From contig JBMYOQ010000036.1 of NCBI GenBank assembly GCA_049599475.1, positions 1 through 41,789 on the forward strand: a stretch of 41,789 bases of DNA, in the 5' to 3' direction. The notes under the pieces were generated by a model, which was not told the DNA's origin, did not search any database, and saw nothing but the letters and a program-made list of their open reading frames with translations. The stretch comes from Opitutales bacterium (GTDB lineage Bacteria > Verrucomicrobiota > Verrucomicrobiia > Opitutales > JABSRG01). A program made the translations under genes and the position numbers. Positions 14,812 through 30,589 of the stretch are shown piece after piece (positions within the stretch are counted from its first letter, which is position 1; each line of letters starts with the position of its first letter).

Positions 14812-14858
14812 GATTTCTTAGTTTGCGACTTCAACCAGAATTCCTCCAGATATGGCAA

Positions 14859-16139
14859 GTGCTCTGGTTTTATCGCATTATATACATCCCTTTCCTTATT
14901 TGTTCCGCGCCCTACTATCTTTATCGCATGATGAAGCGCGGCGGATACGGTGAGGATTTCCAGCACCGTTTCGGGAAATACGGGAAGCACCCCGACCCCA
15001 CAGGGGACAAGAAACGCATCTGGATACAGGCTGTGAGCGTGGGTGAGCTACAGGCGATCAAACCCTTGGTCGAGCAGCTCAAGGATGGTGGTAACTATTG
15101 GATAGCGGTCACCACAACCACCAGCACAGCTTACCGGATTCTGCAGAAAGACTTTTCGGCGATCAGCGATTTCCGTGGTTATTTTCCTCTCGATTTCCTT
15201 CCATTCATCAAGCGCGCGTGGAAGCAAATTCGTCCAGACACCGCGATACTTATGGAGAGCGAGCTTTGGCCGGAGCACATGTATCAAGCGAAACGCGCGG
15301 GCGTGCCTCTTCTATTGATCAACGCCCGCATGTCGGACCGCTCGTTCAAGCGCTATTCAAAGCTACGGTTTCTGACGGTGTTTATGACGCGCTACATTTC
15401 CGCAGTCGCTGCGAGTTCGCAGGTGGATGCAGATCGGTTTAGGTCACTCGGAATCCCAAAGCAGCGAATCGCAGTCGCTGGGAATCTAAAACTAGACAAA
15501 GATATTCAACCCCGGCTGTCAGATTCGGAAATCAACCAGCTAAAACGCGAAATGGGATTTTCCGAAAACGCACGGGTTATCCTCGGCTCCTCCACCTGGC
15601 CCGGAGAAGAGGCCATGCTCTGTAGAATTTTTAATCAGATTAAAACCCGTCACCCCGAAGCCCGGCTTCTCATCGTCCCGCGCCATGCAGAACGGAAATC
15701 GGAGCTACAAGAAAAACTCCCAGAGTTTGCGCTGAAAACGCACTTTCGATCGGATTCGAAAACCGCCGACTCAACTACCGAGCTCTACATAGCAGACACC
15801 ACGGGAGAGCTCCCCATGCTCACCCAAATTGCCGACCTCGCTTTCATTGGCAAAAGTATGCCCCCTCACAGCGAGGCACAATCCATGATCGAACCCGCCA
15901 TCCTCGGGATACCAGCCCTCATCGGCCCAGGATACTCGAATTTCAAACCGATCGTCGAAGGACTCCTCCAAGCAGGCCTCATCGAATCGGTTGCCGACGA
16001 AGAGCATCTCGCAATTTCCATCACCCAAAAGCTCGCCGAAGCCCCCGACCGCAGCCCCTACAAAACCCGCGCACAATCCTGGCACCTCGCCAACAAAGGC
16101 TCCCTCAAGCGCACCTTAGAGCAAATAGAGACTGCCTAA
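14859..16139 (+). CDS. waaA: 3-deoxy-D-manno-octulosonic acid (Kdo) transferase
   Basis: IWIQAVSVGE, FPLD, MESELWP, INARMSDRS, GNLKLD, IVPRHAER, DTTGEL. Start probably GTG 14859 (ORF track gives 14823). Confidence 0.93.
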   Translation: MLWFYRIIYIPFLICSAPYYLYRMMKRGGYGEDFQHRFGKYGKHPDPTGDKKRIWIQAVSVGELQAIKPLVEQLKDGGNYWIAVTTTTSTAYRILQKDFSAISDFRGYFPLDFLPFIKRAWKQIRPDTAILMESELWPEHMYQAKRAGVPLLLINARMSDRSFKRYSKLRFLTVFMTRYISAVAASSQVDADRFRSLGIPKQRIAVAGNLKLDKDIQPRLSDSEINQLKREMGFSENARVILGSSTWPGEEAMLCRIFNQIKTRHPEARLLIVPRHAERKSELQEKLPEFALKTHFRSDSKTADSTTELYIADTTGELPMLTQIADLAFIGKSMPPHSEAQSMIEPAILGIPALIGPGYSNFKPIVEGLLQAGLIESVADEEHLAISITQKLAEAPDRSPYKTRAQSWHLANKGSLKRTLEQIETA

Positions 16140-16171
16140 ACCTCACATCCGAGGATGCTCCCCAATAAGGG

Positions 16172-16208
16172 ATTCAACAATAAATAGTCAGACTATTTAT
16201 TGTTGAAT
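16172..16208. repeat. Perfect 37-bp palindrome (18-bp arms, 1-nt centre), REP-like candidate
   Basis: ATTCAACAATAAATAGTC-A-GACTATTTATTGTTGAAT; the arms are exact reverse complements, and the right arm recurs 17/18 at 29258-29275. Confidence 0.9.
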
Positions 16209-16268
16209 AAACACTCGATCATTCTGTGAGCTTGATGCTGGGGAGGATTGGTCTTTGGATTTCTACGA

Positions 16269-16859
16269 ATGGCAAAGAAGGCAATATTGCTCATCATCTC
16301 TGGACCCGCGGGTAGTGGTAAGACCACCCTGTGCGATCGTCTACTCGAGGAATTCGCTCCTGCTGTGCAGCGCGTAGTCACATCGACTACTCGCGATCCA
16401 CGACCCGGCGAAGTCAACGAGCGGGATTATTACTTTTTCAGCGTCTCGGAGTTTGAGCAATTAGAGTCGCAGGGTGCTTTTTATGAGACCGCCAATGTCC
16501 ATGGCCGACGCTACGGAACACTCAAGCGCGAGGTGCACCGCAAGTTGAGTGATAATATCGACTGCCTTTTGAATATAGACGTCCAAGGTGCTGTGGCATT
16601 TTTTGAATCGGCCAAGTCGGACCCCTTGCTCGCGGGTCGGATCCACTCCGTTTTTATTATGCCGCCCGATTTGGAAACCTTAAAGGCGCGCATTCTAGCT
16701 CGAGGCTCTGTAGACGAGGGTGAACTCGCCCGGAGATTAGAATCTGCTGAGATGGAAATCGGATATGCAGATCGCTACGAACAGATATTGAACACCTCCA
16801 CTCGCGAGGCGGACTGGGAGTTCATAAAGAATTACTACACTTCCCGGAAAGCCGACTAA
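16269..16859 (+). CDS. gmk: Guanylate kinase
   Basis: ISGPAGSGKTT, TTRDPRPGE...DYYF, VHGRRYGT, IDVQGA, FIMPP. Confidence 0.95.
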   Translation: MAKKAILLIISGPAGSGKTTLCDRLLEEFAPAVQRVVTSTTRDPRPGEVNERDYYFFSVSEFEQLESQGAFYETANVHGRRYGTLKREVHRKLSDNIDCLLNIDVQGAVAFFESAKSDPLLAGRIHSVFIMPPDLETLKARILARGSVDEGELARRLESAEMEIGYADRYEQILNTSTREADWEFIKNYYTSRKAD

Positions 16860-28391: not shown

Positions 28392-29246
28392 CTAGGGACG
28401 CTTAATTTTCCTCAGCGTAAACATTTCAACATCGGTATCTCCGCTCCACGGCACTGGCCTGAATTTATTCTTACGGTGGGGCAGCAGTTTCTCACACAAT
28501 CTTCGGACAAATTCTGCCGACCCCAAGCAACCCGCTCGAATCAACCTGAGATCACGGTGCACCTTCCAATCCTGATCGGCGTTCAAGAAGCCAAAGGTCT
28601 CATCAACAATGCCCCACAGGGTTCTCAAAATCTGTTTAAACTGCGGATCGCCCATTTTTGCCCGGCCCAACGAAGACCATCGATAATCCTCGGCATGCTC
28701 AACGATCCCGGCCCTTACCGGATTCAGCTCTATATATGCCGCAACCATTCGGAGCACTTTTGCAGAATTTTCGATCAACTGAGAGCGAAAAGTAGACTCC
28801 CACAGCGTCCCGACGTTGTCATGATTCTTATTATACCAGATGGTAAAACGCTGCTTTAGTTCTTTCATAAAAATGGCCAGAGAACCCATTCGCGCACACA
28901 AACGCTTGCGAGCAATCACAGCCTCGCTCCCTCCTTCATTCAAAATCGACTCTAGACGATCGGGAGAAAGCGTCCGCTCAGAAATCCATTCATTCCGAGG
29001 GTAAAGCCTCCGATACCGAGCGATCAATTCAGCATCGGACTCGGGTAAAACCTGCGAACGAAAGCGAATCAAGAGGTGAAAATGATTCGACATCACACAA
29101 AAGGAAAGCAGCTCCACCCCAGAAAACGCCGCCTGACGCCGAAGAACATCGATAAACTTACGCTTCCCCTCGTCATCAAAAACAAACTTTCGAAAAGCCA
29201 CCCGACTCACCACATGATAAGCCTCATCATCATTCAACATTCGCAT
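28392..29246 (-). mobile_element. REP-associated tyrosine transposase (RAYT; Y1 HUH, IS200-superfamily)
   Basis: YHVVSR, FCVMSNHFHLL (HUH), FMKELKQRF, LWESTFRS, YIELNPVRAGIV...YRWSS (catalytic Tyr); intact 284-aa ORF. Confidence 0.9.
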
Positions 29247-29249
29247 ATT

Positions 29250-29281
29250 AATAGTGCGACTTTTTATTGTTGAATTGTCAA
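29250..29281 (-). promoter_or_regulatory. RAYT promoter region containing a copy of the 16172-16208 palindrome arm
   Basis: Minus strand reads TTGACA (29281-29276), then ATTCAACAATAAAAAGTC-GC-ACTATT, then AAT-ATG. Confidence 0.65.
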
Positions 29282-29308
29282 ACTGATAATCTTGCTCATT
29301 TTGAGGCG

Positions 29309-30589
29309 ATGGCAGAGAAAGATTTAGGGAAGATTATCGAGACTATGGCGCGTAAGGCGCGCGCGGCTTCTTTGGTTTTGGGGGTTTCTTCGACTCGTCA
29401 GAGAAACGAAGCGCTCGGATTTTTGGCGGAGCTTATTCGCTCGCGCGCGGCCGATCTTAAGACAGCGAATGCCAAGGATATCGAGTTCGCGCGCAACGCG
29501 GATCTTTCTGAGTCTATGATTGATCGGCTTATTCTAAATGATAGCCGAATCGAGGGGATGGCCCAGGGAGTAGAGCAGGTCGCTGAGTTGGACGATCCTG
29601 TGGGAACGATTCTTGATTCGACTACACGTCCAAATGATCTTCGCATAGATAAGGTGCGTGTGCCAATCGGGGTGATTGGGATTATTTACGAATCTCGCCC
29701 AAACGTCACTATCGACTGCGCAGTTCTCTGCCTCAAATCAGGGAATGCGGCTATTCTGCGCGGGGGTAAGGAAGCCTTTCATTCAAACACTTTCTTGGCT
29801 GGCTTGATTCAAGAGGCGCTTGGAAAGGCCGGCATTCAAGAATCAGCGGTGCAGCTTGTGCCTACAACCGACCGTGCAGCTTTGAACCACCTGTTAGAGC
29901 TTGATGAGTACGTACACTGCATCATTCCCAGAGGCGGGGAGAAATTGATTCGATTCGTCAGCGAGAATACACGCATTCCAGTGATCAAGCACTATCTGGG
30001 TGTTTGCGCAGCATACGTCGATAAGGATGCTGATTTTAAGATGGCTGTAGATATTGTAGTAAATGCCAAGGTTCAACGGCCTTCAGCCTGCAATGCTATC
30101 GAAAATCTCTTTATTCACGCCGACATTGCAAAAGACTTTCTTCCCAAGGTAGCAAGCGCCCTTCAATACCACGACGTCGAACTCCGTGTCGATGGTGCAG
30201 CCGTAGCGATTCTGCTTCGTGCATCAGGTGTGACGTTTGAGCCTGCCGAGCAAAATGACCTTTTCACAGAACACTTGGATAAGATTATAACGGTTAAAGT
30301 GGTCAATTCTATCGACGAGGCCATTCAGTCTATAAACAGATACGGCTCAGCGCACTCTGACACGATTATCACGGACAGTTCAGATGCAGCCGAGAAGTTT
30401 ATGAACGGAGTCGACTCCGCCACCGTTTACTGGAACGCCTCCACACGCTTCACTGACGGCTTTGAATTCGGACTTGGCGCAGAGATCGGAATTTCCACCG
30501 ACCGCCTGCATGCCCGCGGCCCCATGGGGCTGAATGAGCTCTGCACTTATAAATTCAAGATCACAGGAACCGGCCAAATTCGCCCATAG
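29309..30589 (+). CDS. proA: Gamma-glutamyl phosphate reductase
   Basis: VPIGVIGIIYESRPNVT, LKSGNA.ILRGGKEA, IPRGG, RPSACNAIE, NASTRFTDG.EFGLGAEIGIST..LHARGPMGL. Confidence 0.97.
   Translation: MAEKDLGKIIETMARKARAASLVLGVSSTRQRNEALGFLAELIRSRAADLKTANAKDIEFARNADLSESMIDRLILNDSRIEGMAQGVEQVAELDDPVGTILDSTTRPNDLRIDKVRVPIGVIGIIYESRPNVTIDCAVLCLKSGNAAILRGGKEAFHSNTFLAGLIQEALGKAGIQESAVQLVPTTDRAALNHLLELDEYVHCIIPRGGEKLIRFVSENTRIPVIKHYLGVCAAYVDKDADFKMAVDIVVNAKVQRPSACNAIENLFIHADIAKDFLPKVASALQYHDVELRVDGAAVAILLRASGVTFEPAEQNDLFTEHLDKIITVKVVNSIDEAIQSINRYGSAHSDTIITDSSDAAEKFMNGVDSATVYWNASTRFTDGFEFGLGAEIGISTDRLHARGPMGLNELCTYKFKITGTGQIRP

Follow-up and report, generated by a model that had tools for sequence, protein, structure and literature searches.

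The window analysed here is a 41,789-nucleotide stretch of DNA from an Opitutales bacterium (contig JBMYOQ010000036.1). Its + strand carries waaA (Kdo transferase; Pfam PF04413) at 14823..16139, with a likely start at 14865, followed by gmk (guanylate kinase; PF00625) at 16269..16859. Between the two genes lies a perfect palindrome of 37 bp (16172..16208, without assigned strand), an 18-1-18 inverted repeat with a C-A-G core, AATAAA...TTTATT arms and TTGAAT at both arm ends. The intergenic gmk leader that follows (16209..16268, + strand, 60 nt) is G/T-rich (37/60 G or T), and neither a sigma-70 promoter match nor a terminator match was found in it. The palindrome itself gave no match to an intrinsic terminator (a GC stem with a T tract) or to Rfam covariance models (0 found).

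The first-pass annotation had reported a sharp switch in strand composition at this palindrome, and its counts were reproduced exactly. Positions 16021-16140 contain C49/G21/A37/T13 (G+T 0.283) and positions 16221-16340 contain C24/G36/A26/T34 (0.583), and a third-position C or A is found in 33 of the final 39 codons of waaA vs 19/39 in gmk. We measured the codon component of this switch as K3, the share of third codon positions being G or T. The genome mean of K3 is 0.568 for genes on the leading strand and 0.415 for those on the lagging strand; in the window, the lagging strand is the + strand. Third positions in the last 120 codons of waaA (15777..16136, + strand) are C/A-rich, with a K3 of 0.225 (27/120 codons ending in G or T) vs 0.50 in the first 304 codons (Fisher's exact test: p = 2e-7) and of 0.15 in the last 40; this is equivalent to G/T-richness on the strand leading away from the palindrome. 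It is the third-largest drop among the 1,896 genes with 300 codons or more. Masking the palindrome places the switch point at 16221, 13 nt beyond the right arm. The flip is lopsided, being strong in the 3′ end of waaA and weak in gmk, where an internal gradient is absent (near minus far = 0.0) and third positions are slightly above the 0.415 lagging-strand baseline (61/120 G or T, p = 0.024). The right-hand G/T excess lies largely within the 60-nt leader. Flips of at least 0.18 in 300-nt G+T occur at only 3/1,199 co-directional junctions, of which waaA-gmk ranks third and two are copies of the palindrome motif. Random co-directional junctions, which the annotation had proposed as a comparison, therefore rarely show a flip of this size.

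A family matrix was built from nine look-alike sites and applied with a cut-off of 20 bits. It recovered 10 copies in the genome (the nine seeds and one more) and zero in three scans with shuffled matrices. Five of the ten copies, among them one at 29239-29275 in the window, immediately precede long class-2 Y1/HUH genes; the other five stand alone. The palindrome at 16172-16208 has the highest matrix score and a hairpin z of -4.9, and it fits the motif found upstream of the Y1 genes; it is a stand-alone copy of the site associated with those genes. The stand-alone copies may be relics or trans-targets of the element. The arms may also resemble a XerD half-site; ten copies tied to Y1 genes speak against a dif site.

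A second, imperfect copy (29239..29275, without assigned strand) shows the same polarity flip within the window and overlaps the start of a Y1/HUH gene. This gene (28392..29246, − strand) encodes a class-2 TnpA-Y1 (RAYT/TIRYT-like) protein of 284 aa with intact HuH and Y-x-x-x-N-P motifs and a C-terminal part shorter than that of its paralogs, and its K3 falls from 0.90 to 0.60. The lagging-strand gene at 29309..30589 (+ strand), which we take to be proA on the basis of a Pfam Aldedh match, is G/T-rich at the third positions of its first 120 codons (0.71). The HUH gene is missing from the equivalent place in a relative of the same genus (G001; the source genome is G000, a same-family relative is G003, and contigs numbered with C and no genome prefix are those of G000). 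There, the palindrome and the Y1 gene are absent, and upstream of proA only the final 10 bases of its right arm are kept, together with the sequence after them (G001:C229:2480-2560, locus L288, compared with 29239-29310 of the window). The element thus appears to have landed beside a -35-like word of the host, which completes the arm.

The genome contains 12 Y1_Tnp matches, of which eight are of the long type. H63 and H65 (HuH) and Y176, N180 and P181 are invariant in 11/11 aligned Y1 proteins, the latter three constituting the Y-x-x-x-N-P signature as given in PMC6006769. The Y1 proteins score above the Pfam Y1_Tnp cut-off, and a structural model (pLDDT 76) had TnpA-REP (4ER8) as its best Foldseek match (E = 2.2e-4), while scores against the RAYT equivalog NF047646 (60.6 and 62.1 bits) were below its 80-bit cut-off. 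The long Y1 proteins are candidate nucleases for cutting the palindrome. One further, unrelated Y1 gene of the source genome (C141:3480-4500) is of the short-core type and has true terminal inverted repeats, as in a typical TIRtron. An orientation bias of the Y1 genes was considered and dropped: all eight long Y1 genes of the source genome are on the leading strand but only 18/33 are elsewhere. Motif orientation did not predict the K3 of the Y1 genes.

Beyond the source genome, 58/74 homologous Y1 loci vs 2/67 control stretches are preceded by a symmetric motif whose arms read AATAAA...TTTATT and whose C-[A/T]-G core is near-invariant. The homologs belong mainly to Verrucomicrobia, and other genomes contain up to 15 motif copies, part of them stand-alone. 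A GGG-type pattern searched for in the family occurred at control level. In a genome of another family (G407), motif copies lie near gmk and near a uxs-like gene (loci L264/L267), and several stand-alone sites adjoin the same genes in G407 and in G406. Many Y1 genes (e.g. at loci L049, L073, L098 and L102) were seen by eye to begin 6-7 nt past a hexamer resembling a -10 box, and in them the -35 word directly adjoins the palindrome. This placement suggests leaderless transcripts and possibly autoregulation of the Y1 genes.

An element of this kind, a class-2 TnpA-Y1 gene with an associated palindrome, is already known. As described for TIRYT/TIRtron elements (Di Nocera 2013, PMC3733652) and for TnpA-Y1 subclass 2.1 (Quentin 2018, PMC6006769), these systems share with ours a Y1/HUH gene beside an inverted repeat and moderately repeated stand-alone copies, some of them self-complementary. 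The GGGACAG core of the relatives fits the published TIRYT motif GGGGWSAS, whereas the window copy keeps the C-A-G core within AT-rich flanks and the copies of the source genome in general represent an AT-rich variant. TIRtrons have paired terminal repeats according to these accounts, while here one palindrome lies upstream of the gene and abuts a -35-like word; downstream of the eight long Y1 genes, no site above 20 bits was found and one weak site was present at C15:60810. We found no mention of flanking skew or duplication scars in these accounts. Subclass 2.3, as outlined in PMC6006769, resembles the long Y1 proteins in length (about 325-355 aa), in its multiple copies, and in a large insertion after the HuH strand and a long C-terminal tail. 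The long proteins have eight copies in G000 and 10 matches in G003, and their insertion between beta3 and alphaC comprises about 55 residues relative to the short-core Y1 protein of the same genome. The 10-aa beta1-alphaA insertion of subclass 2.3 is absent relative to the C141 protein. Since length, copy number and one insertion match but the other insertion is missing, we did not file the long Y1 protein in this subclass. The corresponding section of PMC6006769 reports no identifiable REP-like structure for subclass 2.3 and places it in Chromatiales and Alteromonadales, in contrast to the conserved palindrome and the mainly verrucomicrobial distribution found here. HUH-Tyr chemistry and fold are shared with REP/REPIN-RAYT systems and E. 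coli TnpA-REP, as these are presented in PMC3333891 and PDB 4ER8. Unlike REPs and REPINs, the window copy and the family matrix have no GTAG/CGTC tag at the hairpin foot, the stem is AT-rich and 18 bp long, and there are about 10 single copies rather than hundreds of paired units; the protein is twice as long as E. coli TnpA-REP and below the NCBIfam cut-off.

The annotation had also proposed measuring third-position skew at the other genomic copies, and there an outward gradient was found again. All ten copies flip in the same direction, by 0.06-0.22 (genome sd 0.045). Over 10 host flanks with waaA excluded, K3 read outward from the site was higher near it than far from it by 0.11, vs a null of 0.027±0.024 (p = 5.5e-4); this test leaves out the site at C4:107189 and the host flanks on C59 and C145, whose ORFs are shorter than 200 codons. 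The excess per successive 200 nt was 0.15, 0.09, 0.06, 0.04 and 0.02, fading over about 600-800 nt. Leading- and lagging-strand genes show the outward gradient alike. K3 runs from 0.85 to 0.35 in proA and from 0.75-0.97 to about 0.55-0.68 in the Y1 genes. Little or no gradient was detected in gmk, in an MCP gene, in one gene on C5, and in gnd and fusA (5/11 host flanks at or below 0.03); the names gnd, fusA, dnaE2, uxs-like and proA are our own reading of the sequences. The host flanks of recently spread copies on C5, C59 and C145 also have little or no skew.

The controls were flat. The gradient was 0.009 at 20 intergenic chance 17-mer matches, and 194 junctions with terminator-like hairpins showed no excess over plain junctions. 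Genes behind strong sigma-70 promoters (N = 19) had a 5′ gradient of -0.004±0.020, against a slightly positive baseline of 0.02-0.04 at plain gene ends. An order-wide 17-mer search matched 113/401 genomes, with many control hits and mostly by chance, and its 58 distinct sites (55 with both flanks) serve as a negative control only. The skew is real and site-linked in this lineage. Other repeats of the genome also have gradients. In the first 40 codons, two repeat families reach 0.10-0.12, GTAG REPs 0.035-0.07 and plain junctions 0.03-0.04. These two families, exemplified at C4:137988 and C17:23466 (43 and 17 junctions), thus have an outward gradient milder than that of the palindrome family and above that of GTAG REPs, and our data show no link between them and HUH genes. 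The motif is absent at nine of the 13 strongest 3′ gradients of the genome, and several of these nine have other repeats downstream. Very strong 3′ C/A gradients without the motif were seen at C59:4491-6440, which is followed by a GTAG-type repeat, and at C21:15001-20106, which is followed by no recognised repeat. Of the five largest G+T flips genome-wide, three come from a repeated block at C120:6760, C5:138150 and C77:13900, which resembles an integron attI region and in one case lies beside an integrase-like ORF.

The same-genus relative G001 lacks the palindrome at three orthologous junctions. Outward K3 over the nearest 120 codons in G000 and G001, respectively, was 0.71 and 0.47 for proA, 0.69 and 0.38 for mgtE, 0.76 and 0.62 for dnaE2, and 0.65 and 0.56 for a ParA-like gene. 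Across all seven genes comparable between the two genomes, discordant codons were 242:135 near the site and 442:530 far from it, with a Fisher p of 7e-10 that overstates the significance, codons being not fully independent. At two-fold sites near the junctions that lack the palindrome, changes towards G000 were enriched for both A->G (38:9) and C->T (17:7), vs 78:104 and 57:53 far away. Two other G001 junctions have, by eye, a GGGAC-type core, and there only the uxs-like gene differs (0.50 vs 0.38), while gnd and fusA do not. These GGGAC-type sites, one following gnd (L330) and one separating the uxs-like gene from fusA (L336), stand where G000 has an AT-rich site, and each matches the Y1-upstream motif of its own genome. 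The two versions at the same loci may reflect repeated use of the locus or concerted change.

For waaA itself, no close relative of the waaA-gmk locus was found among the genomes and metagenome loci searched. The G001 assembly (86% complete) gave no match to waaA or gmk with the queries used, and the 23 metagenome waaA loci are at 34-48% identity. We analysed 30 loci out of 39 genomes with a match and examined 29 orthologs, which are 40-47% identical; gmk was within the locus in 0/29. A comparable 3′ drop is lacking in 27 of these 29 distant orthologs, and two drop as much and lack this palindrome. Because no close ortholog was available, the link between waaA and the palindrome rests on the other copies. 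The idea in the annotation that orthologs without the palindrome would lack the codon gradient thus holds at those copies, where the same-genus orthologs are less or not skewed, and for waaA it meets with distant orthologs only, two of which show the drop.

In G001 and G003 together, 10/11 host flanks of Y1 genes were positive (0.114±0.038, p = 0.045) and 9/9 Y1 genes had a gradient, with K3 falling from 0.80 to 0.63; in this set, 4/15 matches were left out for a missing 5′ end. In six more distant genomes, 52 host flanks averaged 0.036±0.009, near the generic gene-end value of 0.02-0.03 in G000, and some of these sites adjoin the same genes in two genomes and hence are not new. A 5′ gradient was present in only 31/57 distant Y1 genes, whose K3 ranges over 0.25-0.82 and tracks local replication polarity (rho 0.61, n = 33). 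Four recent paralogs compared near the site had 14 K->M changes on 114 sites and four M->K changes on 21, with no strong ongoing bias and no raised rate. Polarisation of proA with an outgroup did not separate near (7:0) from far (26:4). Contigs from four sequencing runs were either identical pieces or belonged to organisms that are not related, and they provided no variants that could be used near the sites.

Tandem duplications adjoin 11/56 motif sites, vs 25/1,151 intergenic midpoints and 10/316 other positions, and are mostly 12-34 nt long. Seven of the 11 have their end between -5 and +1 relative to the core centre. Another set of 53 sites, which overlaps the first in part, has duplications at 10, seven of them ending at -2..0. 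One duplication in the source genome likewise ends within -5..+1 of the core centre; the palindrome beside waaA has no such scar. These core-ending duplications point to site-specific breakage. A tandem duplication of about 76 bases was also observed over the start of another long Y1 gene (C15:59680-59860). Nicking, extension of the 3′-OH and rejoining constitute the amplification model put forward for E. coli TnpA-REP in PMC3333891, and the same series of events in the core would yield such duplications.

We lean towards reading the flanking skew as the mutational footprint of an enzymatic nick followed by outward strand displacement, in which the exposed strand is deaminated. A Y1/HUH enzyme would nick in the C-A-G core, after which a helicase and a polymerase of the host would peel off the strand that leads 5′->3′ from the nick, over up to a few hundred bases. 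The polarity observed follows from a displaced strand that runs 5′->3′ away from the nick, and its mirror form follows from a palindromic site of which either strand could be cut. Single-stranded DNA is expected to accumulate C->T together with A->G. Such deaminations on the exposed strand would be fixed upon rejoining; since the displaced strand would thereby stay part of the chromosome, its damage could be passed on. In vitro cleavage by E. coli TnpA-REP reaches >400 nt from the hairpin according to the experiments presented in PMC3333891. The annotation had suggested repeated nicking or unwinding at the palindrome; the association with a nicking-enzyme family and the duplication scars at the core favour this idea in part, and the effect is weak in more distant genomes. 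The footprint reading is also weakened by the host flanks of those genomes, which barely depart from baseline, by recent paralogs without ongoing bias, and by the milder gradients of unrelated repeat families. Erosion of TnpA-REP-type sites cut between C and T was considered too and found no support, as CT dinucleotide odds (1.00 vs 0.97 near nine strong flanks) showed no clear loss. More tentatively, and with less than even confidence, we propose that a Verrucomicrobia-centred, domesticated Y1/HUH branch cuts either strand within the conserved palindrome and thereby initiates brief rolling-circle-like displacement outward into the host chromosome, so that its sites act as local strand-polar mutators which recode housekeeping genes over about 600 bases and leave duplication scars marking the nick.

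An effect of repeats in general, in which the Y1 protein has only placed the site, is an unlikely but serious competitor. An AT-rich palindrome may melt or extrude a cruciform, or host structure-specific nucleases and repair synthesis may expose the outward strand. Two other repeat families and GTAG-type REPs have the same polarity in weaker form, plain gene ends already stand at 0.02-0.04, and the strongest stand-alone effects occur at well-paired AT-rich copies (waaA and mgtE/dnaE2). Against such an effect, the 194 junctions with terminator-like hairpins are no different from plain ones, a near-perfect copy at C9:58711 is almost without gradient, and in G001 and G003 strong gradients persist even where the site preceding a Y1 gene pairs poorly. 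Transcription-associated mutagenesis, which we consider somewhat less likely again, would start from the -35-like words (TTGACN/TTGAAT) in which the arms end, with outward transcription or R-loops exposing the non-template strand. It predicts the correct polarity, many Y1 genes begin about 29-34 nt past a TTGACN word (by eye), and gnd and fusA, each shielded from the site by a terminator-like hairpin, are without gradient; one flank in G003, however, keeps a gradient of 0.195 across such a hairpin. The waaA-gmk site has no promoter match, and 0/9 sites have a promoter of 10/12 or better. Nor do genes behind strong promoters show a 5′ gradient, and coding strands as a whole are without net G/T bias (mean of 0.568 and 0.415).

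That the element prefers junctions already skewed, or that waaA has an extreme gradient by chance and independently of the palindrome, seems improbable. Extreme values do occur by themselves, as 7/1,817 co-directional 3′ ends reach at least 0.28 and most of the extreme genes have no site, and for waaA no close ortholog was found. However, orthologous junctions without the site are less or not skewed, the recently spread copies on C5, C59 and C145 have little or no host-flank skew, and the result stands without waaA. The polarity had led the annotation to liken the site to a miniature replication origin, and as an analogy of polarity this is apt. A true secondary bidirectional origin is nevertheless highly improbable: near the sites the skew reaches 0.8-0.97 and fades within about 1 kb, and beyond about 1 kb the polarity of the contig is unchanged on either side of both sites. 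The leading-strand level of 0.57 is the ceiling for an ordinary origin, and the origin reading therefore fails. A fork barrier was rejected by reasoning, since it predicts the opposite polarity. Gradients of substitution asymmetry are known from other settings. In organelle DNA, deamination gradients with distance are read as time spent single-stranded (PMC2695485), and for human CpG islands a bidirectional asymmetry graded with distance from a defined site is read as origin activity (PMC2817419). Both are replication-scale patterns (kb to Mb) of eukaryotes or organelles, as these sources describe them, whereas the footprint considered here spans about 0.6 kb at a bacterial mobile-element site.

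In the literature searched, we met no account of a site for the long-protein branch, of its duplication scars, or of skew beside REP/TIR palindromes; the repeat might be listed, or the subclass fixed, by figure 9 of PMC3733652 and the supplementary files of PMC6006769. The finding bears on the role of RAYT/TIRYT-type nucleases in the cell. It supplies a candidate site for long proteins similar to subclass 2.3, with a cut position predicted from the ends of the duplications, and a measurable footprint that could serve to date and map activity from sequence alone. If the mutator reading is true, this footprint would record in the genome how proteins of a group without a known substrate act in vivo. 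If confirmed, it would mean that the strand bias of replication and the codon usage of core genes can be overridden locally by sites of mobile elements, with consequences for skew-based origin finding and for codon-bias analyses.
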